Positions 15,401-64,000 are shown, counted from the first letter of the stretch. The stretch is 64,000 bases of DNA from Oscillospiraceae bacterium (GCA_015065165.1 SVQU01000009.1:66-64065), one strand, 5' to 3'. Numbers and translations: made by a program. The notes: generated from the sequence alone by a model not told the origin.

Positions 15401-16363
15401 GTGATAGTTGTTGTAAATAAGGTTAAGACCGCTGGGAAGCTGTTCGGGAACGCTTTCCTGAAGAACAACCTTAACGCTCTTAACAGAAAGGGTGGTACCC
15501 GAAGCGGTCAAGCCGAGGTGGCCCTTTGTAAGACCGGTCTTGGAGGTATAGCTGCTGCCTGCCATATACAAAACCTGAGTGCCGCCGATGGAATATTTAA
15601 CGTCATTGCCCGAAACCTTAACGTCGATAACGCGGTATGCATCTGCCATGGTAGAATAAGATGCTGCCGCCTTGGAAATAACGTTCCAGCCCGAGGTGGT
15701 GAATTCGGAAAATTCAATGCCGTTTGCTGCGGTGGTGTTGTTACGGATACACATCTGGTAATGGCTTGCGGTACCTGCGCGGTTGTCGGAACGGTAAACC
15801 AAAGCGAACCAACGGGTATCTTCGTTAACAGAAGTGAGCTTAACGTTTGCAGAGAAGCCGTAGTTACCGAAATCGCCCAGCCATGCAGGGAGATATGCGG
15901 TGGACTGAACAGCGTTACCCTTGATAGAAAGGGCGCTGTCTGCAATACTTGCGGTGTCGGGAAGTGTCCAACCTGCGCTTGTAAGTGCAGAGGTGCTTGC
16001 AAAATCAGCCAAGTTTGCTTCGTAAAGTACATATTCGCTGTCGGAAGCATTCTTCGCAACAACGTAAATGTTCTTGGTTTTGCTGCCGCTTGTAGCGGTA
16101 AGGGTGGTTACACCCTTTGCGGTAGGTGTAAATTCGGTGATGGTGGTGCTGCCGTTCTTCCAGGTAACGTTGGAAGTAGCAGAGGTATCACCGTCAAAGG
16201 TAACCGAATAGTTGGAAAGAGCAATCTTTGTGCCAACTGTTGCGGTTATAGCGGGGGAGTTGTTCTTGATTACTGTTGCCGCAGAAGCGGGTGTAACTGC
16301 AAAAACAGTAAGCATAGAAACCAACATTGCCAACGCTAAAATGACGCTTAATGCACGTTTCAT
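12461..16363 (-). CDS. secreted multidomain glycerophosphodiester phosphodiesterase (GDPD) with C-terminal dockerin (paralog 1)
   Basis: 1300-aa ORF with AAAGGAG RBS and signal peptide '...VFAVTPASA'. It contains Ig-like (Big_2-type) segments and a GDPD core 'GHAGNYDVAEENTMESFIAAYENGADILELDMGITSDGVPVLLHDNTLNRTT'. It also has a discoidin/F5-8-type-C-like module ('ARYFRFTI...WVDEIEL'). The C-terminus carries a duplicated dockerin segment 'GDINGNG(E/D)IDAVDYTMLKRAYFGIYA'. Confidence 0.85.
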   Translation of the reverse strand: MKRALSVILALAMLVSMLTVFAVTPASAATVIKNNSPAITATVGTKIALSNYSVTFDGDTSATSNVTWKNGSTTITEFTPTAKGVTTLTATSGSKTKNIYVVAKNASDSEYVLYEANLADFASTSALTSAGWTLPDTASIADSALSIKGNAVQSTAYLPAWLGDFGNYGFSANVKLTSVNEDTRWFALVYRSDNRAGTASHYQMCIRNNTTAANGIEFSEFTTSGWNVISKAAASYSTMADAYRVIDVKVSGNDVKYSIGGTQVLYMAGSSYTSKTGLTKGHLGLTASGTTLSVKSVKVVLQESVPEQLPSGLNLIYNNYHPTENLVTPIANVQKVTSVSAANLSNLSVAYFDLTTSIDATAALKAAVAANVVPTFYVTTNAQVDKVVAAISSAGKYDVNVISNTASVLAYLHGKNSKVRRGLVVSLSTELADGVLTSKEADAVRKKVRSAPATFAVVDSKYASAQAVNALNELAVAVWVNVASTQGTDAFRLEAITALTSGAHGIISGSASAIEEIIANDFAPNTFTRLSAGIGHAGNYDVAEENTMESFIAAYENGADILELDMGITSDGVPVLLHDNTLNRTTTYTGTKNIWEMTWAEVQQYPVVNTRTGVNTGKPIPKFEELLQFVKGKDLKLFVEYKWNAHDMIPKSIELIKKYDMLDQCDFLSFYGNCLNAVLSLAPGASTSFIYNNNSTDIKGTNATYAQSLLSLDHWISNSQYYKSTISCPRYVPITNDLMQAATDRGMTVWPWTYDTKSTNDAFFACVDGMTMINAQDLKDMVKTVSVDNLEMFVGQTYTGGALTATTYSRYSFNVSGANTVAAVVSGDAVKVENGKLVAVKEGTAKVIFGCKTNTYMGSEYVVYTQPVDVTVGGNSASVLRPLVEMAETATLNSLSEADLDSLRQLYTKAKALLASDNPSEDEVKNTASAMSKLIEAFATVSYTTTAPNYDYWDASAANMFYDDGIRLMDGKKQSITGDSSAYSAWTKTSAGVVDITVDYSTSATKDTFKGYFAHDNWGVYCPSAMDIYYSDNGSTWTKANVTLSTEKTKDATTDLPWALSTVTATSATPITARYFRFTITPGYSNGFIWVDEIELLDSNASLSYVSNVNTKIAAGDCTVFNSSFGEITNSTANIKYTAFVIAKWDSAEGAYVIKETYSSNTDGKTFNLASDEILLAAHDWESNLAGQQAVVGSAFNKMMLSNATVGQKIQFVGIDTDTWEFNVAPGFKLVTEDEPEPTLKGDINGNGEIDAVDYTMLKRAYFGIYAVDLTAGDINGNGDIDAVDYTMLKRAYFGIYAIN

Positions 16364-46960: not shown

Positions 46961-49645
46961 ATGAACTTGGCAAAACGTTTAATTGCTTTGGCTGTTGTTG
47001 CGGTTTTGCTTGCTTCCTCTTGCATTTTTGTAAGTGCGGCAATGCTTACCTCCAAGGGCGGTCATAACGTAACCAGCGACGGCGCGGTAGTTTATAAAAA
47101 ATTCAGCGCTGCCGGTGCACATACCGAAGATGCAACCGTGCTTGAATTTAACCCTAAAAACGGCTATATTCCCGTTGCATTCGACGGAGCACCCACCAGC
47201 GTTGCTTCTATCCCCACCCAATACAGCACCGCTGTTAATACTTACGGCTATGAGGTTGCAGGCGTAATCAACGCAGGCTACTTCACCATGTCCACCAGCA
47301 CTCTCGAGGGTATGGTTATCACCGACGGCAAGCTTGTTGCCGCTACCAGAGGTGCGTCTACCATTGTTGCTTTCGGTAACAACGGCAGTATGGATATCGT
47401 TACCACCCAGCCTAAATATACCGTTGGTATCAACGGCAAAAGCCTCGAAAACCCCATTTGGTTCTTCAATAAGGAATATAAGGATGCAGGCTCTACCGAA
47501 AGAGGCGCTTATATGTTCTATTATGACTACAGCGCAAACGCAAAGACCTCTTATTCCGAATCCGGTACCGAAGTTCTTTTCGAAAAGCTTGACAATTCCG
47601 AGCTTTCTTACGGCGAAACCTTGGTTGGTAGAGTTGTAAGCAAAAAGACCTCTACCACAGGCAGCACCACTATCGCTAAAAACCAGTTCGTTCTTTTTGC
47701 AAAGAACGGCTCTACCTATGTAAACGAGCTTAACTCTCTTGCTGTGGGCAATAAGGTTACCATTAACATTACCGAAACCAACGCAGGCGCAGTTACCGTT
47801 ATGAACAACGCAAACAGCGTTCTTAACAATATCGACTATCTTGTTAAAGACGGTCAGAACTACACCATCGGCAAAACCTCTGTGGGCGGACATAACCCCA
47901 CAACCACCTATGCACGTTGGACTGCATACGGCGTTAAGGCAGACGGCACCTACGTATTCCTTACCACCGAAGGCGGCTCTACCGGTGTAAGCTCCCGTTC
48001 TCTTACTCTCAGAAACGTTGCCGATATCCTTATCGAGCTCGGCTGTGTAACCGCAGTTCGTCTTGACGGCGGCGGAAGTACAGGTATGTACGTTTCCAAC
48101 ACAGGCTCCGGCAACGCAGGCTGGGTTATGACGGGTCAGCGTTCTGTTGCAGATACCATTCTCGTTGTTAAGAAATCCAGTATGCACGATGCAACTCTTG
48201 AAACTAAGTTGAAATCTGCAATCGCCACCGCAAAGCAGACCGCAGGCTCTAACGCAGGTATTCTTAAAGCAATTTCCGAAGCAGAAGCAATGATTGGCAC
48301 CAACGCTACCGAAGGTCAGCTTCGTAAGGCTATCATCAGTCTTTCTCCCAAGGCAATGCTCGGCGCGGCTCTCGCAAAGTGCGACGTTTTGAACATCGGT
48401 GAATATACCGAAACCGACCTTGCGGCTCTCCGTACCGTTTACGATGCAGCAAAGGCTGTTTACAATTCCGATTCTGCTACCGATGCTCAATATTCCGCAC
48501 AGACCACCAAGGTTTACTCGGCATTGGATAAGAGCGCGAACGTTATTCTTTCCGCAGGCGCGGCTTACACCACCACCGCACCCAACCGCGGCGACGGACA
48601 CGACGACGACAAATATCGTCTTACCGACGGCACAAAGGGCGGCTTGGACCTTTCTCAGTACAGCTATTCCGGCTGGAACGTAAATTCTCTTTCCAACCGT
48701 ACCGTTAATATCGACGTAGACCTTGGCGCAGTTCAGTCCTCCAACACCTTTACCGTTTATATGGCGGCAGGTATGTGGGGTATCGGCGCACCCTCTGCTA
48801 CCTTAAGCGTTTACACCTCTACCGACGGTGTTAACTACACCTCTCTCGTAGGTACTTCTACCACCAGAACCTCTGTGGGCTCTGCTGTTGTGGGCTCCGA
48901 AACCTGCAATACCTATACCTACACCGTTAAGAGCAACTCCAACGTAAGCGCACGTTACGTTAGATTCGCCGTTAAGAACAGCGTTAACTTCACCTGGATT
49001 GACGAGGTTGAGGTTTCCCGCACCAACGGCAACGCAAGTAACGTAGTTACCAATTACACCAAGATTCAGAGCTTCAATACCAAGATTACCGCGGGCTCTT
49101 CCACCATCTTCACCCCCGATATGGGCGCGCTCACTCAGAGCAATGCAAACCACACCTGGTCCAGCAATATTATTTGCGAGCTTCAGTCCGACGGCAGCTA
49201 CGTTGTAGTTGAAAACGTAAGCTGGCATGCAGACAGCAACAAGACTATCACTCTTAAGAGCAACCAGATTATGATTTGTGCTCACAGCGATCCTACCGTT
49301 GCGGGAAGTGCTGCAAACGCATCCAACTTGGGCGCGGCGCAGGTTGGTCAGGTTCTTAAGGTTTACGGTATCGACCTTGCAAACAAAACAATCAGCGCGG
49401 CTGCATACGTTCAGTTTGAAAATCCCGCCGAGCCCGAACCCGATTATTACCTTGGCGATATTAACAACAACGGCAGCTTCGAGGCTATGGACTACAACCT
49501 TCTTAAGCGTGCATATTTCGGCGTTTACGGGTTGGCTATCGAAGCAGCGGGCGACCTTAACGGCAACGGCGAAATCGATGCAATCGACTATGCTATGCTT
49601 AAGCGCGCATACTTCGGCGTGTACCCCCTCGATTGGATTAACTAA
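46961..49645 (+). CDS. secreted phosphodiester glycosidase (NAGPA/DUF2233-like) with discoidin-like module and dockerin
   Basis: 894-aa ORF with AAGGAG RBS and a signal peptide. 'AGVINAGYF...GMVITDGKLV' and 'VTAVRLDGGGSTGMYV' fit the phosphodiester-glycosidase fold. It has a discoidin-like module ('ARYVRFAVKN..WIDEVEV'), a module shared with the GDPD paralogs, and C-terminal dockerin repeats 'GDINNNGSFEAMDYNLLKRAYFGVY' / 'GDLNGNGEIDAIDYAMLKRAYFGVY'. Confidence 0.7.
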   Translation: MNLAKRLIALAVVAVLLASSCIFVSAAMLTSKGGHNVTSDGAVVYKKFSAAGAHTEDATVLEFNPKNGYIPVAFDGAPTSVASIPTQYSTAVNTYGYEVAGVINAGYFTMSTSTLEGMVITDGKLVAATRGASTIVAFGNNGSMDIVTTQPKYTVGINGKSLENPIWFFNKEYKDAGSTERGAYMFYYDYSANAKTSYSESGTEVLFEKLDNSELSYGETLVGRVVSKKTSTTGSTTIAKNQFVLFAKNGSTYVNELNSLAVGNKVTINITETNAGAVTVMNNANSVLNNIDYLVKDGQNYTIGKTSVGGHNPTTTYARWTAYGVKADGTYVFLTTEGGSTGVSSRSLTLRNVADILIELGCVTAVRLDGGGSTGMYVSNTGSGNAGWVMTGQRSVADTILVVKKSSMHDATLETKLKSAIATAKQTAGSNAGILKAISEAEAMIGTNATEGQLRKAIISLSPKAMLGAALAKCDVLNIGEYTETDLAALRTVYDAAKAVYNSDSATDAQYSAQTTKVYSALDKSANVILSAGAAYTTTAPNRGDGHDDDKYRLTDGTKGGLDLSQYSYSGWNVNSLSNRTVNIDVDLGAVQSSNTFTVYMAAGMWGIGAPSATLSVYTSTDGVNYTSLVGTSTTRTSVGSAVVGSETCNTYTYTVKSNSNVSARYVRFAVKNSVNFTWIDEVEVSRTNGNASNVVTNYTKIQSFNTKITAGSSTIFTPDMGALTQSNANHTWSSNIICELQSDGSYVVVENVSWHADSNKTITLKSNQIMICAHSDPTVAGSAANASNLGAAQVGQVLKVYGIDLANKTISAAAYVQFENPAEPEPDYYLGDINNNGSFEAMDYNLLKRAYFGVYGLAIEAAGDLNGNGEIDAIDYAMLKRAYFGVYPLDWIN

Positions 49646-50302: not shown

Positions 50303-53300
50303 ATGAAAAGATTAATTTCGTTTCTTGTTGTTGCCGCCATGCTTTTATCGCTTTTTGCGGTTGCACCTGCCGCGGCAGATTATGACACAACGGGAAATAT
50401 CGCGCTTGGCTGTTCCTATGAGGGAACGGGCTATGCGGTTTCCGGCGGTATGTGGCCTGCGTCCTACAACGCAAACCTTACCGACGGTTTGACAGCCACA
50501 GACCTTTACGGCACAGACAATTGGTTTGGTTTTTCCAGCAGCGAAAGCGACAACGGTATTAACGCTCCCGACAAAATCGGCGTCGTTATAATCGACCTTG
50601 GCGAAATTAAAAGCTTCAAATCCATCAAGGTTAACACCTTTGTTGGAAACGAATCGGGCATTACCAGACCTGAAAAAATCACTGCTTACGTTTCTGACAC
50701 CCGCGACGGTGTTTTCGAAACCCTTGGAGATTTCCAATACGGCGAAGTTGTAAATAATATCGCTTGGGCTATCCTTAACGCCGAAGCTTCCGGCAGATAT
50801 GTAGCTATTGAGGTTGAACTCGGCAGCGGCGTGTTCGCTTTCATCAACGAAGTTGCTGTTTACGAAGAAGAATCTGACGGCATCATTGAAGACCAGCCCG
50901 ACGTTCTTCCCGAATACAACGAAGCTTACGCTTATGACACCACCGGCAACGTGGCTCTTAACAAGACCTACGATGCTAAGGGTTACAAGCGCGGCGGCGA
51001 ATGGCCCGTTAACTACGTAGCTCCCCTTACCGACGGTCAGGCTTGCAACGAAGTTAAGTTCGACAACAACTGGTTTGCTTTCTGCACCAGCGCAGGCGAC
51101 TACGGTCCTAACACTAACAATGGTATTGGTACCGTTACCGTTGACCTCGAAAAGGTTCACAATATCGATTCTATCAAGGTTAACACCGTAGTTGGTAAAA
51201 ACGTTGAGGGTTCAGGCATAAACGGCCCCTATAAGATTTCCGCTTACATCAGCGATACTGCTGACGGAGATTTCACCTATCTCGGCGACCTTACCATCGG
51301 CGAAGGCGTAAATGGCGTTGCTTGGGCAGAGCTTTCTACCGAGGCTACGGGCAGATTTGTGAAAATCGAAATAATTCTTGACGGTTTTTTCGCTTTCATC
51401 AACGAAATCGCTGTTTACAGCGAAGATGCGAGCCAAGACGGTCCCTCCAAGCCTACCAACGACCAGGTAGATCCCGATCCTAACCCCGACCCCGAACCTC
51501 CTTTTGATGAGCTTCTCGGCGAAGAAAACGAAAACCCTGCGTTTACAATGGATATCACCGCGCCCGAAAGCTATGCCGCAGGCGAGGAGGTTGTTGTAAC
51601 CGTTACGGTTAATAACGCGAATACCGCCCTTCAATACGTAAATGGACATCTCTATTTCGACACCGACGTTCTTGGCTTTGACTTTGGATTGACAGAAGAC
51701 AGAGAACTAAGCGGTTCTCTTGTTGAATTTGCGGAATGGGAGGATTTCTGCGCCCTCAAAAAAGATGAAAACGGCAATTGGTACGTACGCATTCAAGCGC
51801 TCACCGCCGGTGATTACGATAATGATGGTAACTATATCTACACTGACAACCTAAACGACGGAGATATTACGTTTAACATCAAGTTCGTCGCCCTTGAGGA
51901 TGCAACCGATGACACTGTTGTATATATTCCTCACAACACCGTTATTGGTGCTTACGTAGACCCCCAAACCTACGAATCCTTCGACTACGTTGGTAACGGT
52001 TCCTTGGCGGAAATCAGTAAGGGCGAATCCAACGGTGCATACAACGGCCCGTTGACCTTTGAACTTGCGGAAAACGGCGAATATTACATCGTTTCGTATT
52101 GTGATGAAGAAGCAGTTTCGGTTGTTATTCCCGAAACCTACAACGGATTGCCCGTTAAGGAAATCGGCAATGATGCGTTCTGTTACTGCACTGAACTTAC
52201 CGACGTTACAATCCCCGATACCGTAACAAAAATAGACGATTATGCATTTGCTTTTTGCTTTAATTTGAATAACGTGATGTTCTCCGAAAACCTAACTTCT
52301 ATCGGTGAATATGCATTTGAAAGCTGCGACCTTTACAGCATATATATTCCCGATTCGGTTACTGAAATCGGATATCTTGCTTTTGACGGCAACTCGTATC
52401 TTACAAGTATAACCGTCGAAGACGGAAACCCCGTATATCATTCCGCGGGTAACTGTCTTATCGAAACCGCAACCGGAGCTCTTATTAAAGGCTGTAACAA
52501 GAGCGTTATTCCTGACGACGGAAGCGTTAAGACTATCTTCAATCATGCTTTCGCTTATTGCTACGGCTTGTCAAATATCAATATCCCCGATTCTGTAAAG
52601 TATATTCATAGCGAGGCGTTTATAAGCAGCGGGCTTGAAAAAATAACCATACCCGATTCGGTAGAGTTTATCGGCGATTTCGCTTTTTACGCTTGCGAAA
52701 ACCTTACCAAGGTAGAAATTTCCGCTTCGGTTGAAGTTATCGGAGTATACGCGTTTGTTTGCGGCGAAAGCCTTGAAAGTATAACCGTTGAAGACGGAAA
52801 TGAATTTTATCATTCTGCGGGAAACTGTCTTATTGAAACCGCAACAAAAACTCTGATTGCAGGCTGTAAAAACAGCGTTATCCCCACGGACGGAAGCGTT
52901 GAAATTATTGGCGATTATGCATTTTTCGGCGCTTGCCATTTAACCAGCATTACAATTCCCGAAACCATTATCTCTATTGGCAAATATACTTTCTATGATT
53001 GTTTCGGCTTGACGAGCATAATAATTCCCGATTCCGTGGAATTTATCGGTGAATACGCTTTTGCTTGGTGCTATAGCCTGACCGATATTTATTGCGAAGC
53101 CGAATCTCAACCCGAGGGTTGGGCAGTTAACGGTTACGATGATTATTTGGAAGAATGGCATGGTAGTTGGAATGACGATTGCGATGCAACCGTTCATTGG
53201 GGCTGGGTTATTGAAAACGACAACTCCTCTGACGTAGATTCTTCCGACATCGTAGATTCCTCCGACATTGAAGATTCCTCCGACATTGAAGATTCCTCCG

Positions 53301-53542
53301 ACGAATCCGACAACTCCGACATAACCGAACCCGAACCCGAAAAGGTTAACAAGGGCGACATTGACGGAGACAGCGATATCGATTCTATGGACTATCTCTA
53401 TCTTAAGAGAGTATACTTCAGCCAGTATAAGGTTGACGACATTACAATAGGCGATATCGATAACGACGGAGTAATCACCAGTATGGACTACCTCTATCTT
53501 AAGAGAGTATACTTCAGCCAATATATAATTAAGGAAAACTAA
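50303..53542 (+). CDS. secreted discoidin x2 - cohesin-like - BspA-type LRR - dockerin protein
   Basis: 1079-aa ORF with a signal peptide. It has two ~165-aa discoidin/F5-8-type-C-like modules ('YDTTGN(I/V)AL...NLTDG...DNWF(G/A)F...SIKVNT(F/V)VG...FAFINE(V/I)AVY'). A cohesin-like beta-sandwich segment 'NPAFTMDITAPESYAAGEEVVVTVTVNN...LYFDTDVLGFDF...ITFNIKFVALEDA' lies at about 51535-52020. LRR_5/BspA-type repeats ('IPD(S/T)V..IG.YAF..C..L') lie at about 52050-53100. An Asp/Ser linker follows, then dockerin repeats 'GDIDGDSDIDSMDYLYLKRVYFSQY' / 'GDIDNDGVITSMDYLYLKRVYFSQY'. Confidence 0.7.
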   Translation: MKRLISFLVVAAMLLSLFAVAPAAADYDTTGNIALGCSYEGTGYAVSGGMWPASYNANLTDGLTATDLYGTDNWFGFSSSESDNGINAPDKIGVVIIDLGEIKSFKSIKVNTFVGNESGITRPEKITAYVSDTRDGVFETLGDFQYGEVVNNIAWAILNAEASGRYVAIEVELGSGVFAFINEVAVYEEESDGIIEDQPDVLPEYNEAYAYDTTGNVALNKTYDAKGYKRGGEWPVNYVAPLTDGQACNEVKFDNNWFAFCTSAGDYGPNTNNGIGTVTVDLEKVHNIDSIKVNTVVGKNVEGSGINGPYKISAYISDTADGDFTYLGDLTIGEGVNGVAWAELSTEATGRFVKIEIILDGFFAFINEIAVYSEDASQDGPSKPTNDQVDPDPNPDPEPPFDELLGEENENPAFTMDITAPESYAAGEEVVVTVTVNNANTALQYVNGHLYFDTDVLGFDFGLTEDRELSGSLVEFAEWEDFCALKKDENGNWYVRIQALTAGDYDNDGNYIYTDNLNDGDITFNIKFVALEDATDDTVVYIPHNTVIGAYVDPQTYESFDYVGNGSLAEISKGESNGAYNGPLTFELAENGEYYIVSYCDEEAVSVVIPETYNGLPVKEIGNDAFCYCTELTDVTIPDTVTKIDDYAFAFCFNLNNVMFSENLTSIGEYAFESCDLYSIYIPDSVTEIGYLAFDGNSYLTSITVEDGNPVYHSAGNCLIETATGALIKGCNKSVIPDDGSVKTIFNHAFAYCYGLSNINIPDSVKYIHSEAFISSGLEKITIPDSVEFIGDFAFYACENLTKVEISASVEVIGVYAFVCGESLESITVEDGNEFYHSAGNCLIETATKTLIAGCKNSVIPTDGSVEIIGDYAFFGACHLTSITIPETIISIGKYTFYDCFGLTSIIIPDSVEFIGEYAFAWCYSLTDIYCEAESQPEGWAVNGYDDYLEEWHGSWNDDCDATVHWGWVIENDNSSDVDSSDIVDSSDIEDSSDIEDSSDESDNSDITEPEPEKVNKGDIDGDSDIDSMDYLYLKRVYFSQYKVDDITIGDIDNDGVITSMDYLYLKRVYFSQYIIKEN

Positions 53543-53686: not shown

Positions 53687-56038
53687 ATGAAAAAATCCAT
53701 CAGATTGCTTTCGGTTTTGTTGGCTGCCGTTATGATTACCGCCGTAATACCCTTCGGCGCAATGGCAACCACCACCGCTTTGAAAAACAAAACAGTTCTT
53801 GCCTTTGGCGATAGCCTTACGGCATTGGGCAACCCCACCTACGTAGGATACCTTTCGGATTTGTTGGGTATCAACGTTATTAACGCGGGTGTCGGCGGTA
53901 ATATGACCGCCCACGGTAAAGCGCGTTTCCAAGCCGACGTTCTCGATAAGAATCCCGACGTGGTTCTTATGTGCTTCGGTATGAACGACCAAGCCTGCAG
54001 CCTTCCTTCGGGCTATTGCTGGTCCTCTCCCGAGGTTTACCGTGCGGATATGACCTATTTCATCACCGAGCTTCAAAAGACCGGTTGCGACGTAATCCTT
54101 ATCACTCCCAACCCTGTTTGTGATGAAACCGGTTATTACGTTGCTCCCGAAGACTATACCTATAACTATCCCGGTTCGTTGGATAAGTTTGTAAAGGTTA
54201 TGCGCGAGCTTGCCCTTGAATTCGATTGCACTCTCATTGATATGCACCAAGAATTTATGACGGTTAAGGCAAGTAATATTGCTACCTATAAGAGCTATTA
54301 CGCCCCCAACGACGGTATTCACCAAAGCCAGCTTGGCAGACAGTTCTGGGCAGAAAAGGTTAACGCTCATCTTAACGCTGTTTATGATAACGTAAACAAA
54401 AAGACCATAACCGTTAACTGCGTTGATAAAAACAATAACGTTATTAAAACCTATAGCTATGTTGGCGCAAACGGTGCAAACGTTGTAATTGCGCCCCCCG
54501 CTATTCCCGCCTTCTCTACCGATAGTACGGCTGTGTCGGCTAAATATGGTACAGACAGCACCGTTACCTTCACTTTCGAGGCTAAAATCACTCCTTTGTT
54601 AGAGGCTGTTGAAAATATCGACGAATCCAAATACAGCGCAACCGCACTTTCTCTCATTCGCAAGGAATATAACACCGCGAAGAGCCTTCTTGCCGCTGAA
54701 AATATCGATTTTGAAGCGTTGGAAAAATGCGCTCAGGTTCTTGAATATTACCTTTCGGTAAACGGCGACGGTACCCTTGTTATCTCCTTGGGTAAGAGCT
54801 ATACCAGACCTGAACCCAACTATTATAAATGGGACAGCGCAACCGGCGGCCCCAGCACCGAGCTTAACGAGATGTATTCCGACGACTTTATTCGTCTTAC
54901 CGACGGTAAGAAGGGTATAGTTCCTGCCAATACAAGCGCATATTCCGCATGGCAGAGCAACGCCGATATCGTTGTGGATCTTGGCGAGGAAACTGCTTCC
55001 AACGTTTACCGCGCTTATTTCGCTTCCGGAATGTGGGGCGTTGCCGCACCTGCCGATATGAAGATTGCTTATTCCAACGATAAGACCAATTGGACTTATA
55101 TCGAAAAGGCATTTGTTAAGACCGATGTTGTTTCGGGCGGCGCCGACGCGTGGAGCTCTACCGAATATTCGGTTACCGCAGATTCCGAAATCACTGCAAG
55201 ATATATCAAGTTCGAAATCACCAAAACAGGTTCTTTTGTATGGATGGACGAGGTTGAGGTTGCGGTTAAGGGCAACGTTGAAGAAAAGTTTAACCTTGCT
55301 TACAACAAAACCTATGAAAAATCGCCTTTGTTCAGACAAAGCAATATAACTTGGGATTGGGACGAAACCTTCCCCGAGGCATATCCCGACGAGGGCGGAA
55401 TAACCCTTACCGACGGCAAGACCAATTCCATTAACGACCTTGGCGACGGCGCTTGGGTTGGCTTTAACTCCAAGACACCTATTCTCGAAACCAACTATAA
55501 CTACATCCGTGTTGACCTTGGCGACGTTTACGGCTTGACACAGCTTGACCTCCACGTGGGCAGCAACGGTCTTGGTTACGGTATTACCGCGCCCAACGTT
55601 GAATTCTTCGTTTCCGAGGACGGCGAGACCTACACCTCTGTGGGAACTGCCAACGGCGCAAACGGCGGCGCATATACCGAGCTTCTTTCGGTTGAATGTG
55701 AGGTTAACGCCCGTTACGTAGAAGCTCGTATTACCAGCATAGGCTGGGCGTTCGTTTCTGAAATTTACGCTTATGGCGGAGATTTGTTTGACGATAAAGA
55801 GCCTACTCCCGACCCCGACCCCGATCCCGATCCCGATCCCGATCCCGTTGTTATGAAGGGCGATATTAACGGCAACGAGGAAATCGATGCGGTTGACTAT
55901 GCAATGCTTAAACGCGCATATTATGGTATTTACAGCGTGGATGTGAAGGTTGGCGATATTAACGGCAATGAAGAAATCGATTCTGTAGACTACTCGATGC
56001 TTAAACGCGCATATTACGGTATCTATCAAATTCAGTAA
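53687..56038 (+). CDS. secreted SGNH/GDSL hydrolase with two discoidin-like modules and dockerin
   Basis: 783-aa ORF with a signal peptide. SGNH blocks 'VLAFGDSLT' (I), 'NAGVGGN' (II), 'MCFGMNDQ' (III) and 'NDGIHQS' (V). Discoidin-like modules ('ARYIKFEITK..WMDEVEV', 'ARYVEARITS..FVSEIYAY'). (PD)n linker. Dockerin repeats 'GDINGNEEID(A/S)VDY(A/S)MLKRAYYGIY'. Confidence 0.8.
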   Translation: MKKSIRLLSVLLAAVMITAVIPFGAMATTTALKNKTVLAFGDSLTALGNPTYVGYLSDLLGINVINAGVGGNMTAHGKARFQADVLDKNPDVVLMCFGMNDQACSLPSGYCWSSPEVYRADMTYFITELQKTGCDVILITPNPVCDETGYYVAPEDYTYNYPGSLDKFVKVMRELALEFDCTLIDMHQEFMTVKASNIATYKSYYAPNDGIHQSQLGRQFWAEKVNAHLNAVYDNVNKKTITVNCVDKNNNVIKTYSYVGANGANVVIAPPAIPAFSTDSTAVSAKYGTDSTVTFTFEAKITPLLEAVENIDESKYSATALSLIRKEYNTAKSLLAAENIDFEALEKCAQVLEYYLSVNGDGTLVISLGKSYTRPEPNYYKWDSATGGPSTELNEMYSDDFIRLTDGKKGIVPANTSAYSAWQSNADIVVDLGEETASNVYRAYFASGMWGVAAPADMKIAYSNDKTNWTYIEKAFVKTDVVSGGADAWSSTEYSVTADSEITARYIKFEITKTGSFVWMDEVEVAVKGNVEEKFNLAYNKTYEKSPLFRQSNITWDWDETFPEAYPDEGGITLTDGKTNSINDLGDGAWVGFNSKTPILETNYNYIRVDLGDVYGLTQLDLHVGSNGLGYGITAPNVEFFVSEDGETYTSVGTANGANGGAYTELLSVECEVNARYVEARITSIGWAFVSEIYAYGGDLFDDKEPTPDPDPDPDPDPDPVVMKGDINGNEEIDAVDYAMLKRAYYGIYSVDVKVGDINGNEEIDSVDYSMLKRAYYGIYQIQ

Positions 56039-56518: not shown

Positions 56519-59500
56519 ATGAAACGTACATTAAGCTTTATCGTTACGTTGGCGATGTTGCTTTCACTGTTCACCGTTTTTGCGGTTACACCCGCTTCTG
56601 CGGCAACAGTTATCGGCAATAATTCGCCCGCTATCCGTGCAAACGTTGGCGAGACAATCACTCTTTCCAACTATTCGGTTACCTTCGATGGCGATACTAC
56701 CGCTACCTCCAACGTTACTTGGAAGAACGGCAGCAGCACCATCACCACCTTTAAGCCTACCGCTAAAGGCGTAACCACTCTTACCGCTACCAGCGGCAGC
56801 AAAACCAAAAACATTTACGTTGTTGCAAAGAATTCTTCCGATACCGAATATGTTCTTTATGAAGCAACAATGTCTAACTTCAGCTCTGTTTCTGCTCTTA
56901 CAAGCGCAGGTTGGACCTTTACCAACTCCGCCAGAGCTTCCAAGGGCAGCGACGGCGCGTTGGTTCTCGGCGTTACCGGCAAATGGGATGCTACCAGCGC
57001 ATATCTTCCTTCCTGGTTGGGTGATTTCGGTAACTATAAGTTTTCCGCGAACGTAAAGTTCAGCGCCTTTGCCGAAAGCGATAAATCCCGTTGGTTCTCG
57101 CTTATGACACGTACGGAAAACCGTACCTGCACCGCCCACTATACTCACGCGGCTTTCCGTGGCAACAATACCGCCTCTAACGGTATCGAGTTTGCTGAAA
57201 GATACGCTACTGATTCCGGAAGCGATTGGAACGTTGCTCTTAAAACCCCCGGTACTTATACCGACCTTACCGATGCTTACCGCGATTTCAGCATTCTCTC
57301 TGTAGATAACACCTTCCGTGTGGATATCGCAGGCAAGCAGATGATTTACGTTGCTCCCTCCTCCTACCTCTCTTTGTCTAAAAAGCAGGTTTACAAGGGA
57401 CATCTCGGTTTCCAGGCTTCGGGCTGTACCATCGCAATAAAGAGCGTTAAGATCACTCTTGAGGATACCGTTCCCGAAGAAATTATCGATACAAAACTTA
57501 TTTATAACAGCTATCACGATGCGGATAACCTCGTTAACCCCATCGCTAATATTCAGAGAGTTTCCAGCGTTACCGCGGCAAACCTCGATAAGCTTTCGGT
57601 TGCATATATCGACCTTACCACCGGTGTAAATGCTCAGACCGCATTTAAAACCTGTATAGACAACAAGGTTGTACCTACCTTCTATGCAACCACCACCGCT
57701 CATGCAGATGCGATTATTGCGGCTTCTACCGCGTTGGGCTCTACCGACGCTACCGTTGTTTCCAACAACAAAACCGTTCTTAACCGTATCAGAGTTCACT
57801 CTACCGCTTATCCTATCCGTACAGGTCTTGTTGTGGATATTTCCACCCAGATGGCAGACGGCACCATGACCGATTACGAAGCCGACGAAATCCGTCGCGA
57901 CGTTCGTGCAATTCCCGCAACCTTCATTCTTATCGAAAGCAAATATGCCACCAAGCAGGCGGTTGCCGAGCTTCAGGAAATGGCTCTTGCGGTTTGGGTA
58001 AACGTTACTTCTACCCCCAACACCGATGCATTTAACATCGAAGCTATGAAGGCTATCACCTCCGGCGCAAACGGTCTTGTTTCCAACAGCGCGGCAGGCG
58101 TTTCTTCTCTTATTAAAACCCACATTCAGGCAAGAGCATTCACCCGTACACCTATCACCATCGGTCATAGAGGTAACCCCGGTGTTGCTGCCGAAAACAC
58201 TATCGAAAGCTTCCAGGCTGCTTATGAAAACGGCGGCGACGTTTTCGAAATCGACGTTGAATGTACCAAGGACGGCGTTATCGTTATTCTCCATGACGGT
58301 ACTCTTACCCGTACTACAACCTATACAGGCTCTACCTCTATCAGAAATATGACATGGGCGGAGGCTAAGAAATATCACGTTCTTGACCTTAACGGTAACT
58401 CCACCGGCAAGCCTATCCCCACCTTGAAAGAGGTTCTCGACTGGGCAAAGGGCAAGGATATTAAGATTTTCGTTGAATTTAAGGATAATTCCACCACCTG
58501 CGTAAACGGCACTATGGCTGATATCGTAGAACGCGGTATGACACAGCAGGTTGATATTATCTCCTTTAATACCACCGCACTTAAGCTTGCAAGAACTGCA
58601 GTTCCCGGTATCTCCACAGGTTATCTTAACGGTAACGATATTACCGGTTCTACCTATTCTATGGCTCTTAAGCTCTTCGAAGGCAGAATCGAACCCGCAC
58701 AGCGCGAATGGTCCACCGTTAACTGCGGCAGCTATAACAACCAGGTTACTAACCTTGCGGTTCAGGTTGCTACCGACCGCGGTATGACTATGTGGCCCTG
58801 GACCTATGGCTACAGCAACACCTCTGCTGCATTCTTCGACTGTCCCGACGGTATCACCACCGACAATATGGAAGTTATGAAGGATATGGTTAAGACCGTT
58901 CATGCAAAGAACTTTGTAATGCTTCCCGGTCAGACCTACGGCGGCGGCGCGCTTACCTCCGAAACCTACGGTAACACTCTTACCAGCGTTAGCGCAAACA
59001 ATACAATCGTTTCGGTTGTTGCAGGCGACAGCGTTAAGGTTGAAAACGGCAAGCTTGTTGCTGTTAAAGAAGGTATCTCCACCGTTGTTATGGCGGTTAA
59101 ATCCTGGACCTACCTCGGTAAAGAATATATCGTATACAGCCAGCCCGTTCAGGTAAGAGTAGGCACAGGCGACCCTGCGGTTCTCGAGCCTCTCGTTGAA
59201 ATGGCAAAATCGGCTACCATCAATTCTCTTTCCGAATCTGACCTCGCAACTCTCCGTGAATATTGCGACAAGGCTGTTGCACTTATCAACAGCTCTAACC
59301 CCAAGGAAGCCGAAGTTAAGGCAACCGCAGAAGCATTGAACAATATCATTGCTAAGTTCATCGTTGAAAAATATATCGCTCCTGCTCCCAACTATTATAA
59401 GTGGGACAGCGCAACAGGCGGCCCCAGCACCGAGCTTAACGAAACCTATGTCGACGACGGCGTTCGTCTTGTAGACGGTAAGAAGAGCCATGTTGCAGGT

Positions 59501-60460
59501 AATACCAATGCATATTCCGCATGGCAGAAGACCTCCGACGGCAAGATTGAAATCATTCTCGATTGCAGCAACCCTGCCCAGAGAGATACCTTCAAGGCAT
59601 ATTTCGCCTCTAACAGCATTTGGGGTGTTAAGGCGCCTGCAAATATGGAGGTTTCCTATTCTACCGATAACAAAACCTTTACACAGTTGGGCGGCGCTAC
59701 TCTTACCAAGCGTCAAATTCCCGACGTGGGCGAATTGAGCGACAACGTTTGGAGCCGTTGGGAATACACCGTAAAAGCTCCTTCGGTTGTTACCGCAAGA
59801 TATTATAAGTTCACCATCTATTTCGAGGGCAGCTTCATTTGGATTGATGAAATCGAAGCCGCTAACGAAAGCAGCGATCTTATTTATATTAATAAGGTTA
59901 ACAACAGAATTAATGCAGGCGAAGCGGGTATTTATACCTCCTCCTTCGGCGAATTGAACAAGCAAACCGCAAACAACATTTGGACAGTGAATATCACTGC
60001 AAAATGGGATGCTTCCAAGGATGCGTACGTGGTTAGCAACGTAGCCTTCGGCGACGGCACCGACAAGCCCGTAACTATTGCTTCGGATGAAATTTATATC
60101 GCTGTTCACGAATGGGAATTGAACACTCTTGATGAAATGCCCGTTGTCGGCAGTGCTCATAACTTGAATCTTGCAAAGGTTGCACAGGTTGGCGACGTGG
60201 TTGAATTCTACGGTATCGATACCGATACTTGGGAGTTCGGCCCTGCACCCAGCATTAAGTTTGTAAGCGAATCCAACAAGGGCGACCTCAACGACAACGG
60301 CGAAATCGATGCTGTTGACTACTCCTTGCTGAAGCGTGCATACTTTGGTATCTTTGCCAGTAATAGCAGTGTTTCTGATATTAATGGCAACGGTGAAGTG
60401 GATGCGGTAGACTACTCCTTGCTTAAACGTGCATACTTCGGTATTTACAGCCTTGCATAA
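56519..60460 (+). CDS. secreted multidomain glycerophosphodiester phosphodiesterase (GDPD) with C-terminal dockerin (paralog 2)
   Basis: 1313-aa ORF with the same architecture as 12461-16363; the N-terminal ~130 aa are nearly identical by eye. Canonical GDPD core 'GHRGNPGVAAENTIESFQAAYENGGDVFEIDVECTKDGVIVILHDGTLTRTT'. Discoidin-like module ('ARYYKFTIYF..WIDEIEA'). Dockerin repeats 'GDLNDNGEIDAVDYSLLKRAYFGIF' / 'DINGNGEVDAVDYSLLKRAYFGIY'. Confidence 0.88.
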   Translation: MKRTLSFIVTLAMLLSLFTVFAVTPASAATVIGNNSPAIRANVGETITLSNYSVTFDGDTTATSNVTWKNGSSTITTFKPTAKGVTTLTATSGSKTKNIYVVAKNSSDTEYVLYEATMSNFSSVSALTSAGWTFTNSARASKGSDGALVLGVTGKWDATSAYLPSWLGDFGNYKFSANVKFSAFAESDKSRWFSLMTRTENRTCTAHYTHAAFRGNNTASNGIEFAERYATDSGSDWNVALKTPGTYTDLTDAYRDFSILSVDNTFRVDIAGKQMIYVAPSSYLSLSKKQVYKGHLGFQASGCTIAIKSVKITLEDTVPEEIIDTKLIYNSYHDADNLVNPIANIQRVSSVTAANLDKLSVAYIDLTTGVNAQTAFKTCIDNKVVPTFYATTTAHADAIIAASTALGSTDATVVSNNKTVLNRIRVHSTAYPIRTGLVVDISTQMADGTMTDYEADEIRRDVRAIPATFILIESKYATKQAVAELQEMALAVWVNVTSTPNTDAFNIEAMKAITSGANGLVSNSAAGVSSLIKTHIQARAFTRTPITIGHRGNPGVAAENTIESFQAAYENGGDVFEIDVECTKDGVIVILHDGTLTRTTTYTGSTSIRNMTWAEAKKYHVLDLNGNSTGKPIPTLKEVLDWAKGKDIKIFVEFKDNSTTCVNGTMADIVERGMTQQVDIISFNTTALKLARTAVPGISTGYLNGNDITGSTYSMALKLFEGRIEPAQREWSTVNCGSYNNQVTNLAVQVATDRGMTMWPWTYGYSNTSAAFFDCPDGITTDNMEVMKDMVKTVHAKNFVMLPGQTYGGGALTSETYGNTLTSVSANNTIVSVVAGDSVKVENGKLVAVKEGISTVVMAVKSWTYLGKEYIVYSQPVQVRVGTGDPAVLEPLVEMAKSATINSLSESDLATLREYCDKAVALINSSNPKEAEVKATAEALNNIIAKFIVEKYIAPAPNYYKWDSATGGPSTELNETYVDDGVRLVDGKKSHVAGNTNAYSAWQKTSDGKIEIILDCSNPAQRDTFKAYFASNSIWGVKAPANMEVSYSTDNKTFTQLGGATLTKRQIPDVGELSDNVWSRWEYTVKAPSVVTARYYKFTIYFEGSFIWIDEIEAANESSDLIYINKVNNRINAGEAGIYTSSFGELNKQTANNIWTVNITAKWDASKDAYVVSNVAFGDGTDKPVTIASDEIYIAVHEWELNTLDEMPVVGSAHNLNLAKVAQVGDVVEFYGIDTDTWEFGPAPSIKFVSESNKGDLNDNGEIDAVDYSLLKRAYFGIFASNSSVSDINGNGEVDAVDYSLLKRAYFGIYSLA

Positions 60461-61017: not shown

Positions 61018-61046
61018 TTGACAATAGGGCGATTTTGTGGTATCAT
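61018..61046 (+). promoter_or_regulatory. sigma-A promoter candidate
   Basis: TTGACA (61018-61023), 17-nt spacer, TATCAT (61041-61046). About a 90-nt leader precedes ATG 61139. Confidence 0.55.
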
Positions 61047-61138
61047 TACAATGTATATATGTGGACTTCGATATTTCGCTATTCGAACCGATTTCGGAAT
61101 ACCGTTTCCCAAAAAATCAAAAGAAAGGAACTCCCAGA

Positions 61139-64000
61139 ATGAAGAAGATTATTTCTATTCTTCTTGTTATAGCAATGCTTTCTACCATGTTCACAGCATT
61201 CGTATTTCCCGTTGCTGCGGCAGGTCAGTCTCTTGCTATTAACGCGATCAACCCTTCTGCGATGGCTCCCGGTATTTCTGCAATTTATACGCAGGCATAC
61301 ACCATCGACGGTTATCAGGAAAACGTGGCGTTTTCTCCCGTTTCCGGTAACACCTTTAAAGTAACCGCAAAATCCGGCTACAGCTGGGACGAAACTCAGG
61401 GCGATATTCTCTCCCAAGCACTCGCAATTCCTGCGGGCGGTTTCGTTTGGTCTGTACAGTGGTCCAGCGATTACTCTCTTGACGATGCAATTAAGTTTGC
61501 AAAGTCTTTGGTTGTTGGCGATACCTTTGAGGTTAGCGGCCTCGATATCGCAAACGGCACTTACACCGACGTAGTTCTTACTGCTGTTGCTGCTGACGGC
61601 GGTTATGACACCACCAACAACGTAGCACGCGGCAAAACATATGATGCTGTAGGTTACGGCGGATACACCGCAAACCTTACCGACGGTGTAGCTGCAAGCG
61701 AGCTTACTTATGACAACAATTGGTTTGCTTTCTATAACAACCCCGGCAACGAAGGCATAAACGCTCCCGACGGCGTTGGTACTGTTACCATCGACTTGGG
61801 CGCAGATTATGACCTCAGCGCTGTTAAGGTTAACACCTTTGTTGGCAGCGAATCCGGTATTGTTAAGCCCACCAAGATGGAAGCGTTCGTTGCATCCGCA
61901 ACCGGCGATTTCGTATCTGTTGGTGAATTGGCTTATACCGACAACGGCACCAACGTTCAGTGGGGTGTTGTAAACACCACCGCAAAGAGCGTTCGTTACG
62001 TTAAGGTTGCAGTTACTCTCAACGGCACCTTCGCGTTCATTAACGAAATTGCTGTTATCGGCGAAAAAGCTGCTAACGATACTTATGACACCACCGGCAA
62101 CGTGGCTCTCGGAGCAACTTACGATGCTAAGGGTTATAAGTCCAGCGGCGAATGGCCTTCTGAATATAACGCAAACCTTACCGACGGTAAGGCTGCACAG
62201 GCTCTTTCCTATGATAACAACTGGTTCGGCTTCTGCAAAACCGATGCAGGCGACAACGGTCTTAACGCTCCCGATGGCGTTGGTACCGTAACTCTCGACC
62301 TCGGCAAGAAGTGCGACATCAACTCTATTAAGGTTAACACCTTTGTAGGTAACGAATCCGGTATTGTTGCTCCCGAAAAGATGACCGCTTATATCAGCGA
62401 CACCGCTGACGGCGAGTTCACCTCTCTCGGCGACCTCACTATCGGTACCGGCGCAAATAACGTTGCTTGGGCAACTCTTAACAAGACCGCTTCCGGTCGT
62501 TTCGTTAAGATCGAAGTTACTGTAACCGGCAGCTTCGCGTTCATCAACGAAATTGCAGTTTACGGCGAAGAATCCAAGGAAGTTTCTCCCGAGGATCTTA
62601 TGGGTACTCCCCATGCTAACCCCAACTTCACTATGGACATCACTGCTCCTTCCACCTACAAAGCAGGTGAAGAAGTTGTAGTTACCGTAACCGTTAACAA
62701 CGTTAACGCTTCTACCGGTCTTCAGCACGTACACGGTAAGCTCTATTTCGACCACAACCTCTTCGGCTTCGATGTAGCGCTTAAGGATAAGCAGGAACTT
62801 AAGAATACCTTCCAGGGTTATGAAGAATGGGAAGATATGACCAGACTTCGTACCGATGGTTCCATCTGGTGGGTAGAACTTGACGCTACCACCGCCGGTT
62901 ATGAAGATCCCGATAACCCCGGTTCTTACCTTATCTCTGATGTAACCGAGGACGGTCTTCTCGTATTTAACGTTAAGTTCATCGCTCTTGCCGATGCAAG
63001 CGACGATACTATCGTTTATATCTCCAACGTTACTACCGACGGCAAGAATAACGTATACGGCGACCACTATGCGATGGAAGAACCTTACACTCACACTCCT
63101 TACGTAGGTAACGGTTCTTACGCTACTATCGCATTCAATGCAGATAGCGGCAACGAATCCTCCGAAGTAGTATCTTCCGAGGTTGAATCCTCCGAAGTGG
63201 TTTCTTCTGAAATCGAATCCTCCGAAGTAGTATCTTCCGAAGTAGTATCTTCCGAAGTTGAATCTTCTGAAGTAGTATCTTCCGAAGTAGTATCTTCCGA
63301 GGTTGAATCCTCTGAAGTAGTATCCTCCGAGGTTGAATCCTCTGAAGTAGTTTCTTCCGAAGTTGAATCCTCCGAAGAATCCTCTACTCCCGAAGTTTCC
63401 GAACCCGAAATCACCGACGACAGACCTTTCATCCCCTCTACCCCTGCAGCAACTCCCGGTTACGATACCACCGGTAACGTAGCACTCGGTAAGTCTTATA
63501 ACGAACAGGGCTTTGGTGGCTACACTGCAGGTCTTACCGACGGTTTGGCTGTTCAGGAACTTACCTATGATAACAACTGGTTTGCATTCTGCACCACTGC
63601 AAACGAAAACGGTTATACCAACGCTCCCAACGGTGTAGGCTCTGTTGTTGTTGACCTTGCTAAGGTTTACGACATCAGCTCTATCAAGGTTAACGCTATC
63701 GTTGGCGAAAACGTTGACAGCTCCGGCATTTACGGTCCCGCAAAGATTACTGCTTATATCAGCAACACTCTTAACGGCACCTATAAGCTTCTTGGCGACC
63801 TCACCATCGGTGCAGGCACCAATAACGTAACCTGGGCAACTCTTGACAAGACCGCTTCCGGTCAGTTCGTTAAGCTCGAAGTTGCTCTTAACGGCACCTT
63901 CGCATTTATCAACGAAATCGTTGTAATCGGCGAAGAACCCGCAAGCGTCGATGACCTTATGGGTACACCTGTTGCTAACCCCAACTTCACCATGGACATC
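61139..64000 (+). CDS. scaffoldin-like secreted protein with repeated discoidin + cohesin-like modules (3' end outside window)
   Basis: This ORF is not in the supplied track because it has no stop in the window. My hand translation from ATG 61139 (AAAGGAA RBS) stays open to 64000 (>950 codons). It has signal peptide 'MKKIISILLVIAMLSTMFTAFVFPVAAA'. After a ~130-aa N-terminal region come discoidin-like modules starting about 61606, 62083 and 63463. Cohesin-like segments 'NPNFTMDITAPSTYKAGEEVVVTVTVNNVNA...LYFDHNLFGFDV' start about 62620 and again at 63980. A (SSEVV/SSEVE)n linker is present. It is paralogous to 50303-53542. Confidence 0.8.
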   Translation, partial: MKKIISILLVIAMLSTMFTAFVFPVAAAGQSLAINAINPSAMAPGISAIYTQAYTIDGYQENVAFSPVSGNTFKVTAKSGYSWDETQGDILSQALAIPAGGFVWSVQWSSDYSLDDAIKFAKSLVVGDTFEVSGLDIANGTYTDVVLTAVAADGGYDTTNNVARGKTYDAVGYGGYTANLTDGVAASELTYDNNWFAFYNNPGNEGINAPDGVGTVTIDLGADYDLSAVKVNTFVGSESGIVKPTKMEAFVASATGDFVSVGELAYTDNGTNVQWGVVNTTAKSVRYVKVAVTLNGTFAFINEIAVIGEKAANDTYDTTGNVALGATYDAKGYKSSGEWPSEYNANLTDGKAAQALSYDNNWFGFCKTDAGDNGLNAPDGVGTVTLDLGKKCDINSIKVNTFVGNESGIVAPEKMTAYISDTADGEFTSLGDLTIGTGANNVAWATLNKTASGRFVKIEVTVTGSFAFINEIAVYGEESKEVSPEDLMGTPHANPNFTMDITAPSTYKAGEEVVVTVTVNNVNASTGLQHVHGKLYFDHNLFGFDVALKDKQELKNTFQGYEEWEDMTRLRTDGSIWWVELDATTAGYEDPDNPGSYLISDVTEDGLLVFNVKFIALADASDDTIVYISNVTTDGKNNVYGDHYAMEEPYTHTPYVGNGSYATIAFNADSGNESSEVVSSEVESSEVVSSEIESSEVVSSEVVSSEVESSEVVSSEVVSSEVESSEVVSSEVESSEVVSSEVESSEESSTPEVSEPEITDDRPFIPSTPAATPGYDTTGNVALGKSYNEQGFGGYTAGLTDGLAVQELTYDNNWFAFCTTANENGYTNAPNGVGSVVVDLAKVYDISSIKVNAIVGENVDSSGIYGPAKITAYISNTLNGTYKLLGDLTIGAGTNNVTWATLDKTASGQFVKLEVALNGTFAFINEIVVIGEEPASVDDLMGTPVANPNFTMDI
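63155..63390 (+). repeat. in-frame 15-bp tandem repeat encoding (SSEVV/SSEVE)n linker, ~15 units
   Basis: TCCTCCGAAGTAGTA / TCTTCCGAGGTTGAA units read directly from the sequence. The 104-aa minus-strand ORF 63118-63432 ('TSEDSTSEDTT...') is its mirror image. Confidence 0.85.

Follow-up and report, generated by a model that had tools for sequence, protein, structure and literature searches.

A putative scaffoldin of reiterated discoidin-like and cohesin modules beside dockerin-bearing phosphodiesterases in an uncultured gut Clostridia bacterium

At the 3' end of a 64,000-nucleotide stretch of DNA from an Oscillospiraceae bacterium (GCA_015065165.1 SVQU01000009.1:66-64065), hereafter the window, lies an open frame that appears to encode the beginning of a scaffoldin, a protein built of discoidin-like and cohesin modules. 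On the plus strand, positions 61139-64000 translate into 954 codons without a stop, as a sequence-only reading of this DNA had stated. The start codon at ATG 61139 is preceded by an AAAGGAA ribosome-binding site 9 nt on its 5' side and opens a signal peptide, MKKIISILLVIAMLSTMFTAFVFPVAAA followed by G, of typical Gram-positive type, with a basic n-region (MKK), a hydrophobic core and an AxA cleavage site (VAAA before G). Upstream, a promoter candidate matches 11 of 12 consensus positions, the consensus match being its basis. The features of the frame within the window are as follows.

61018..61046, plus strand: sigma-70-type promoter candidate of the scaffoldin gene (TTGACA, 17-nt spacer, TATCAT, extended -10 TG)
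61139..61219, plus strand: start codon and signal peptide (aa 1-27), read from the sequence
61220..61597, plus strand: domain X (aa 28-153), a region with no Pfam or PDB match
61598..62068, plus strand: Disc1, discoidin-like module of the carbohydrate-binding module family 32 (CBM32) type (aa 154-310), 17.9 bits on Pfam F5_F8_type_C, sub-threshold
62078..62575, plus strand: Disc2, discoidin/CBM32-like (aa 314-479), 23.3 bits on Pfam F5_F8_type_C against a cutoff of 28.2
62606..63142, plus strand: Coh1, divergent cohesin (aa 490-668), assigned by family profile, Pfam matches of its relatives and fold
63158..63454, plus strand: Ser/Glu-rich linker with 15 SSE(V/I)(V/E) pentapeptides, then a Pro-rich stretch
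63455..63937, plus strand: Disc3, discoidin/CBM32-like (aa 773-933), assigned by a module hidden Markov model (HMM)
63965..64000, plus strand: start of Coh2, cut by the window end, the remainder being read from a longer assembly (L001)

A terminator-like hairpin at 60797-60829 closes the upstream GDPD gene on its 3' side, and the scaffoldin gene is therefore probably its own transcription unit, as far as these signals allow. Gene callers of public assemblies place the start at GTG 61037. We prefer ATG 61139, as the sequence-only reading did, because the promoter falls within the GTG extension, which would swallow the candidate. An antisense frame that overlaps the gene (61079-63094, minus strand, 671 aa) has no family match and was judged a shadow ORF.

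The module order that the sequence-only reading had proposed for the frame (signal peptide, unique domain, two discoidin-like modules, cohesin-like module, repetitive linker, third discoidin-like module, start of a second cohesin-like module) is reproduced by its landmarks. YDTT recurs at aa 156, 316 and 775, NPNFTMDI stands at aa 494 (nt 62618) and again at aa 947 (nt 63977), and the 15 pentapeptides of the linker occupy aa 674-748. At the DNA level this linker consists of tandem repeats with periods of 15, 30 and 45 nt (L001 16637-16859, corresponding to window 63155-63377). Domain X, which found no match in Pfam and PDB searches, is weakly similar to regions of three other proteins with discoidin and cohesin modules (P0025, P0041 and P0059); since this similarity, including an IPAGGFVW motif, is common to all three, X is a recurring uncharacterised domain.

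To follow the gene beyond the window, we located it in public data by exact sequence look-up of its complete upstream neighbour (56519-60460), which is present on 23 public contigs. In all six metagenome loci fetched, six independent assemblies from six samples, the frame is open and identical. Five of these assemblies end 985-1,418 codons into the scaffoldin gene, where the cohesin modules repeat; the sixth, L001 (JGI 3300022660), is the sole one to span the whole gene, up to L001 21670, and differs from the window at none of 7,482 nt. The complete product has 2,349 aa, of which the window holds the 5' 40% of the gene, and a convergent radical-SAM gene lies on its 3' side. Its full order is signal peptide, X, Disc1, Disc2, Coh1, linker, Disc3, Coh2, linker, Disc4, Coh3, linker, Disc5, Coh4, linker, Disc6, an acidic (DSSIES)n linker and a dockerin. 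Downstream sequence thus supplies what the sequence-only reading had sought in it, a module count and an anchoring device: four cohesins and six discoidin/CBM32-like modules, with each cohesin preceded by one of the latter, and a dockerin at the end. The 2,349-aa protein has no match to a catalytic family and carries a signal peptide, as befits a secreted, non-catalytic protein with several cohesins. Exact look-up in a protein collection retrieved neither this scaffoldin nor the leucine-rich repeat (LRR) protein encoded at 50303-53542, the former probably because gene callers chose the GTG start.

The identity of the cohesins had to be established through their relatives. Scanned directly against Pfam/NCBIfam, the 954-aa fragment yielded sub-threshold matches only, with Coh1 alone reaching 19.8-20.4 bits on Pfam Cohesin PF00963 (cutoff 24.1; E 6e-4 to 9e-4; model positions 2-124 of 139). 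A profile built from the four internal copies, which are 76-93% identical to one another, recovered no solved cohesin among PDB sequences; it was too shallow, and external relatives were needed. A scan of a genome collection with cohesin peptide patterns found nothing and a word-indexed homolog search returned one protein; an exhaustive HMMER search among 1.84 billion representatives yielded 66 relatives. Among these 66, Pfam Cohesin occurs in 39, dockerin in 26, F5/8C in 11, LPXTG in 5 and LRR_5 in 3, and Pfam Cohesin recognises 33 of 42 trimmed homologous modules at E <= 0.01 (best 8.2e-14). A 42-row family profile then matched about 20 solved cohesins, with the best E value at 9.3e-6 (4UMS, ScaB) and others including 6KGC, 5LXV (ScaC), 5NRK, 3L8Q and the NagJ cohesin. 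An AlphaFold2 (AF2) model on the same alignment is all-beta, with a predicted local distance difference test score (pLDDT) of 96.4 and a predicted template modelling (TM) score of 0.91; an earlier model on a 2-row alignment (pLDDT 44.7) was discarded. Without exception, the ten best Foldseek matches to this model in the PDB are cohesins (probability 1.00, E 7e-6 to 2e-4); the NagJ/NanJ cohesins of Clostridium perfringens lead, and behind them come cohesins from C. acetobutylicum, C. cellulolyticum and C. thermocellum, with TM-scores of 0.54-0.76 when normalised to the target and 0.5-0.6 when normalised to the query. Compared with classical cohesins, the module has about 35 additional residues, which form extra strands and loops in the model. 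Family profile, Pfam matches of relatives and modelled fold together bear out the cohesin assignment, although a single module stays below the Pfam cutoff; on the model, it is a divergent but genuine cohesin-fold domain.

The discoidin-like modules presented a similar picture. Single copies score 16-23 bits on PF00754 (cutoff 28.2), while the whole scaffoldin reaches 44.5 bits on PF22633 (cutoff 27.8), and with an HMM derived from the copies every copy scores E 1e-72 to 1e-88, a repetition well above what chance would give. Searched against the PDB, a profile of the six copies within the protein found no match, so that a 66-row alignment was needed. About 99 external homologs were collected, most of them with PF00754 (homologs at E 1e-33 carry it), and NCBI labels several as discoidin-domain proteins. 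The 66-row profile matches CBM32/F5-8C structures at E 3.5e-10 to 1e-3: best is the C-terminal domain of the BT0459 hexosaminidase (6Q63, E 3.5e-10), followed by 2J7M and 2J1A at 1.2e-7, which bear only the PDB label 'hyaluronidase' and which we take to be the NagJ CBM32, and by NagJ 2V5D at 2e-6; AlyQ, a chitosanase CBM32 and domain 1 of galactose oxidase are matched as well. Membership of the discoidin/CBM32-like family, proposed from sequence patterns, is thus confirmed at the level of profiles and homologs, again with single modules below the Pfam cutoff. In about 15 of 65 relatives a discoidin-like module lies directly N-terminal to the cohesin, so that the pair belongs to this rare clade of cohesins and is not a one-off.

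Besides the scaffoldin, the window encodes five dockerin proteins, listed here with the basis of each assignment.

12461..16363, minus strand: GDPD with F5/8C and type A dockerin (1,300 aa), putative cargo (Pfam)
46961..49645, plus strand: NAGPA-family phosphodiester glycosidase with type A dockerin, putative cargo (Pfam)
50303..53542, plus strand: second cohesin protein, with signal peptide, Disc, Disc, Coh (subtype 2), BspA-type LRR and type B dockerin (module HMMs)
53687..56038, plus strand: GDSL esterase with two F5/8C domains and type A dockerin, putative cargo (Pfam)
56519..60460, plus strand: GDPD-family glycerophosphodiester phosphodiesterase (1,313 aa) with type A dockerin, putative cargo (Pfam)

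The dockerins of the cargo exceed Pfam cutoffs, and the C-terminal 75 aa of the scaffoldin score 36.8 bits on Pfam Dockerin_1 PF00404 (cutoff 22.9), with a helix after each of two EF-hand-like Ca2+ loops, GDIDRDGDIDSMDYLYLKRVYFSQY and GDIDNDEVITSMDYLYLKRVYFSQY. Two types can be told apart. Type A, GD(I/L)NGNGEIDAVDYxMLKRAYFGIY in two repeats, is found on four enzymes of the window; type B, GDIDxDxxIxSMDYLYLKRVYFSQY, also in two repeats, occurs in the window only on the scaffoldin and on the LRR protein, whose dockerins are nearly identical. Where type A has AV at loop positions 10-11, type B has SM, and the two also diverge along the helix; in type I dockerins these loop positions and the helix set cohesin specificity. 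Four Dockerin_1 enzymes thus share the contig with the scaffoldin, three of them in the cluster directly upstream, and we infer that the type A enzymes are its cognate partners. The fourth, the GDPD protein at 12461-16363 on the minus strand, lies about 30 kb from the dockerin cluster amid housekeeping genes; it is a paralogue of the one at 56519-60460, and their signal peptides are near-identical.

The GDPD domains resemble solved glycerophosphodiesterases (GP-PDEs), some of which are themselves large multidomain proteins, and the NAGPA region matches the human uncovering enzyme weakly. By family HMM, the enzymes at 46961-49645, 53687-56038 and 56519-60460 all bear F5/8C-like domains, so that discoidin-type modules pervade scaffold and cargo alike. 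In both GDPD proteins the N-terminal ~550 aa carry no significant annotation, and Pfam scans with relaxed settings added hardly anything for the halves of the cargo enzymes that lack annotation. No glycoside hydrolase domain was found on the dockerin proteins of the 64-kb window (NAGPA, GDSL esterase, two GDPD, LRR), and for this reason the system is not a cellulosome sensu stricto.

The cohesin of the neighbouring LRR gene (50303-53542) had been overlooked by the sequence-only reading. By Pfam label alone the protein is BspA-LRR plus dockerin, and a scan with module HMMs revealed its Disc-Disc-Coh front. Identity between its cohesin and Coh1-4 is 49-52%, and it rises to 62% with the second cohesin, CohB, of the closest external relative, P0002 (NCBI MBE6692402.1; locus L088 10001-12298), a protein from a metagenome-assembled genome (MAG) labelled 'Ruminococcaceae bacterium'. 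P0002 reads signal peptide, Disc, CohA, linker, CohB, linker, and then PVTGD, a transmembrane helix and KTRK. Its CohA is 74-79% identical to Coh1-4. By sequence identity the cohesins accordingly fall into two subtypes, with Coh1-4 and P0002 CohA in subtype 1 and the LRR-protein cohesin and P0002 CohB in subtype 2; P0002 carries both, together with a sortase-type P-x-TGD sorting signal. The P0002 contig has a tetranucleotide correlation of 0.975 with the window, the two halves of which correlate at 0.959 with each other, and its ENA sample series also includes two contigs bearing the scaffoldin gene. P0002 is thus probably from the same genome, as judged by composition and sample. The dockerin anchor, the second cohesin protein in the cluster and the division into two cohesin and two dockerin types are additions to what had been read from the window before.

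Other relatives show further arrangements of these parts. P0001 (L007 10001-10855, GCA_052837285.1) has 284 aa and consists of a signal peptide, one cohesin of the subfamily and a dockerin, and thereby resembles an adaptor scaffoldin; its gene neighbours are CotH, VTC and DUF4956, not dockerin enzymes. P0006 shares the unusual P-x-TGD sorting signal of P0002, and P0008 terminates in IPQTGD. P0008 also contains more than 300 residues of (SSEVE)n, which flank its single cohesin on both sides, and P0005 has a tail in which Cys/Pro/Glu-rich repeats come after a long (DDDDS/F)n run, both being cases of extreme low complexity.

The leucyl-tRNA synthetase (LeuRS) of the organism is at most 80% identical to that of any GTDB species representative, its nearest named relatives being from Acutalibacteraceae, Ca. 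Fimenecus and Ruminococcus-like MAGs of herbivore guts. On this marker the host is an uncultured herbivore-gut Clostridia bacterium near Acutalibacteraceae/Ruminococcus-like lineages.

Among known systems, CipA of C. thermocellum and ScaA of Ruminococcus flavefaciens resemble this scaffoldin in layout: secreted, non-catalytic proteins with tandem, near-identical cohesins separated by linkers, a carbohydrate-binding function and a C-terminal dockerin of another type than those of the enzymes. CipA has one CBM3 and ScaA none. Here, by contrast, a CBM32-like discoidin module precedes every cohesin, six such modules being present in all; the cohesins belong to a rare divergent subfamily (66 among 1.84 billion representatives) below the Pfam cutoff; the linkers are Ser/Glu-rich instead of Pro/Thr-rich; and the neighbouring dockerin proteins are phosphodiesterases and an esterase, with no glycoside hydrolase found among them. 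The R. flavefaciens FD-1 genome also encodes many LRR-dockerin proteins, and the dockerin of its scaffoldin falls into a unique group (PMC2930009). Closer in lineage is the mucinolysome of Limousia (Acutalibacteraceae), whose cSca1/cSca2 are multi-cohesin and non-catalytic, with C-terminal dockerins predicted to bind an LPXTG-anchored single-cohesin scaffoldin (PMC12997984). Compared by described architecture, the two systems share a cellulosome-like organisation, a non-plant substrate, a related gut lineage and clustered genes (PMC12997984). They differ in cargo, which in Limousia comprises mucin-degrading glycoside hydrolases and peptidases and here GDPD, NAGPA and GDSL esterase, and discoidin/CBM32 modules in scaffoldins are not described in the text of PMC12997984 as searched. 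The organisms differ too, as the LeuRS identity of at most 80% to any GTDB representative indicates.

Both scaffoldin modules find their best or near-best solved relatives in C. perfringens NagJ (GH84C), for which the Disc profile matches 2V5D and the cohesin model has 2JH2 and 2W1N as its top Foldseek matches; identity in the Foldseek alignments is low (8-15%). The order of NagJ is, we believe, GH84-CBM32-cohesin-FN3, within the cohesin-dockerin system of a toxin complex, and the structure description of 2W1N agrees with the Coh-FN3 part. As in the scaffoldin, a CBM32 is directly followed by a cohesin. NagJ, however, is an enzyme with a single such pair, serving enzyme-enzyme association, whereas here the pair is reiterated four times on a non-catalytic scaffold. 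To our knowledge, NagJ offers the only CBM32-cohesin adjacency that can be named. The amylosome of R. bromii carries starch-active GH13 enzymes with starch-binding CBMs, some of its cohesins are on enzymes, and we know of no alternating CBM32-cohesin scaffold in it. It resembles the present system in that a cohesin-dockerin assembly serves a substrate other than cellulose in a Ruminococcus-like bacterium of the gut (mentioned in PMC12997984). In the open-access literature we found no scaffoldin with alternating discoidin/CBM32-like and cohesin modules, and no dockerin-GDPD, dockerin-NAGPA or dockerin-teichoic-acid system. The sequence-only reading had called the placement of a putative glycan-binding module beside each cohesin an unusual design; that view holds with the qualification that the pair exists in NagJ and in about 15 of 65 relatives.

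We consider it likely that the frame opens the gene of a secreted scaffoldin that is non-catalytic and integrates enzymes, in a system that resembles a cellulosome yet is not cellulolytic. The designation 'primary scaffoldin', which the sequence-only reading had used, fits the architecture: the protein carries four cohesins that are near-identical, lacks a catalytic domain and has a dockerin at its C-terminus, in the layout of CipA/ScaA. In the mechanism we propose, each of the four subtype-1 cohesins would capture one type A dockerin enzyme (GDPD, NAGPA or GDSL esterase). Since the scaffoldin ends in a dockerin, it has no wall anchor of its own and needs another cohesin to dock on; its type B dockerin would plug the loaded scaffoldin into a subtype-2 cohesin, that of the sortase-anchored P0002 or of the LRR protein. 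Attachment to the cell would thus run through the C-terminal dockerin, with P0002 as the candidate anchored partner. Binding of dockerins by these cohesins is predicted to depend on Ca2+, the context being the five dockerin genes of the window and the 26 of 66 relatives that combine cohesin with dockerin. The six discoidin modules would provide multivalent, avidity-based attachment to glycan surfaces and give each catalytic position a lectin of its own. In the most speculative step, the complex would act on phosphodiester-linked glycopolymers, such as teichoic-acid-like polymers, other phosphoglycans or surface glycoconjugates of host or microbes, and not on the plant cell wall, because the cargo cleaves phosphodiesters and esters.

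Several points weigh against this account. The substrate is taken from Pfam families that span less than one third of each large enzyme, which makes the substrate step the weakest. The pairing of type A with subtype 1 and of type B with subtype 2 is drawn by analogy, and P0002 is placed in the same genome by composition. That there are four cohesins and six discoidin modules is taken from one spanning short-read assembly; Coh2 and Coh3, 94% identical at the DNA level, have an exact repeat of 143 nt in common, and five of six assemblies break inside the gene. Finally, with the cohesins so divergent (below the Pfam cutoff, about 35 extra residues, query-normalised TM-scores of 0.5-0.6), altered or lost dockerin binding is conceivable.

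Three other explanations were weighed. The wiring might be reversed or promiscuous, so that subtype-1 cohesins bind type B dockerins (leading to self-association, capture of the LRR protein or homo-oligomeric chains) or both types, and the enzymes attach elsewhere, for example to P0002. That a subtype-1 cohesin sits directly on this anchored protein means that the subtype need not be scaffoldin-specific; the helices are internally duplicated in both dockerin types; and AlphaFold3 predictions for Limousia have scaffoldin cohesins bind the dockerins of their own scaffoldins as well as those of enzymes, which also speaks against our pairing (PMC12997984). We nevertheless regard reversed wiring as unlikely, since the dockerins of CipA/ScaA scaffoldins differ in specificity from those of the enzymes (PMC2930009 for ScaA), and four type A enzymes with four near-identical cohesins make the simplest match of numbers and types. 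It is rather improbable that the discoidin-like modules are structural partners of the X-module type, which stabilise or orient the cohesins and are not lectins. Their fixed position directly N-terminal to the cohesin in about 15 relatives, and their sub-threshold scores on Pfam F5/8C, would agree with such a role; their nearest solved relatives, however, are bona fide CBM32s (C. perfringens NagJ/NagH, AlyQ, the chitosanase CBM32, galactose oxidase domain 1), and F5/8C domains related to them are present on the enzymes too. Copies without a cohesin exist as well, as in Disc1, Disc6 and many Disc-only matches of at most ~250 aa, many of which sit on 1-2 kb contigs and are possibly fragments.

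The protein might, as a further alternative, be a multivalent surface adhesin in which the discoidins do the work, the cohesin folds act as stalk, spacer or binders of something other than dockerins, and the adjacency of dockerin genes reflects no more than a common route of surface display by way of its own dockerin. The insertions and sub-threshold Pfam scores of the cohesins would suit this explanation, as would the excess of discoidin modules (six) over cohesins (four), the neighbour that joins the same modules to BspA-type LRRs typical of adhesins, and the occurrence of cohesin-like modules outside scaffoldins, for example in C. perfringens glycosidases. Those C. perfringens 'cohesin-like' modules, however, do bind dockerins (PMC12997984, citing its reference 78). 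Moreover, 26 of 66 relatives pair cohesin with dockerin, several of them small and resembling Coh-Doc adaptors such as P0001; the four tandem cohesins are strongly conserved, which suggests a shared ligand; and five dockerin genes in one window require a cohesin partner. An adhesin therefore seems improbable to us, and we retain the enzyme-integrating scaffoldin as the preferred explanation.

As judged from its modules, the system is a variation on the cohesin-dockerin scaffold theme, its novelty lying in a lectin-cohesin cassette that is reiterated and in a cargo of phosphodiesterases. Cohesin-dockerin assemblies are best known for breaking down plant cell walls, with starch (the amylosome) and mucin (the mucinolysome, 2025-26) as recent extensions, and with its phosphodiesterase (GDPD, NAGPA) and esterase cargo this locus points to a further one. 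A lectin module for each cohesin, in place of one CBM per scaffold, suggests avidity-based targeting along the whole scaffold. For protein engineering, a natural repeating lectin-cohesin cassette and two orthogonal dockerin types may provide a template for glycan-targeted designer complexes. HMM surveys of cohesins in gut metagenomes under-count such systems, because this rare divergent subfamily escapes the Pfam threshold. As a less likely reading, the protein may be the organising subunit of an undescribed class of cohesin-dockerin system, a surface complex that degrades phosphoglycans and has its own lectin at each enzyme position. If so, teichoic-acid-like polymers, or other glycopolymers with phosphodiester links, could be stripped or harvested by the complex from host glycoconjugates or nearby microbes. 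The cellulosome paradigm would then reach beyond glycoside hydrolysis into phosphodiester chemistry and gain the reiterated CBM32-cohesin pair as a building block.

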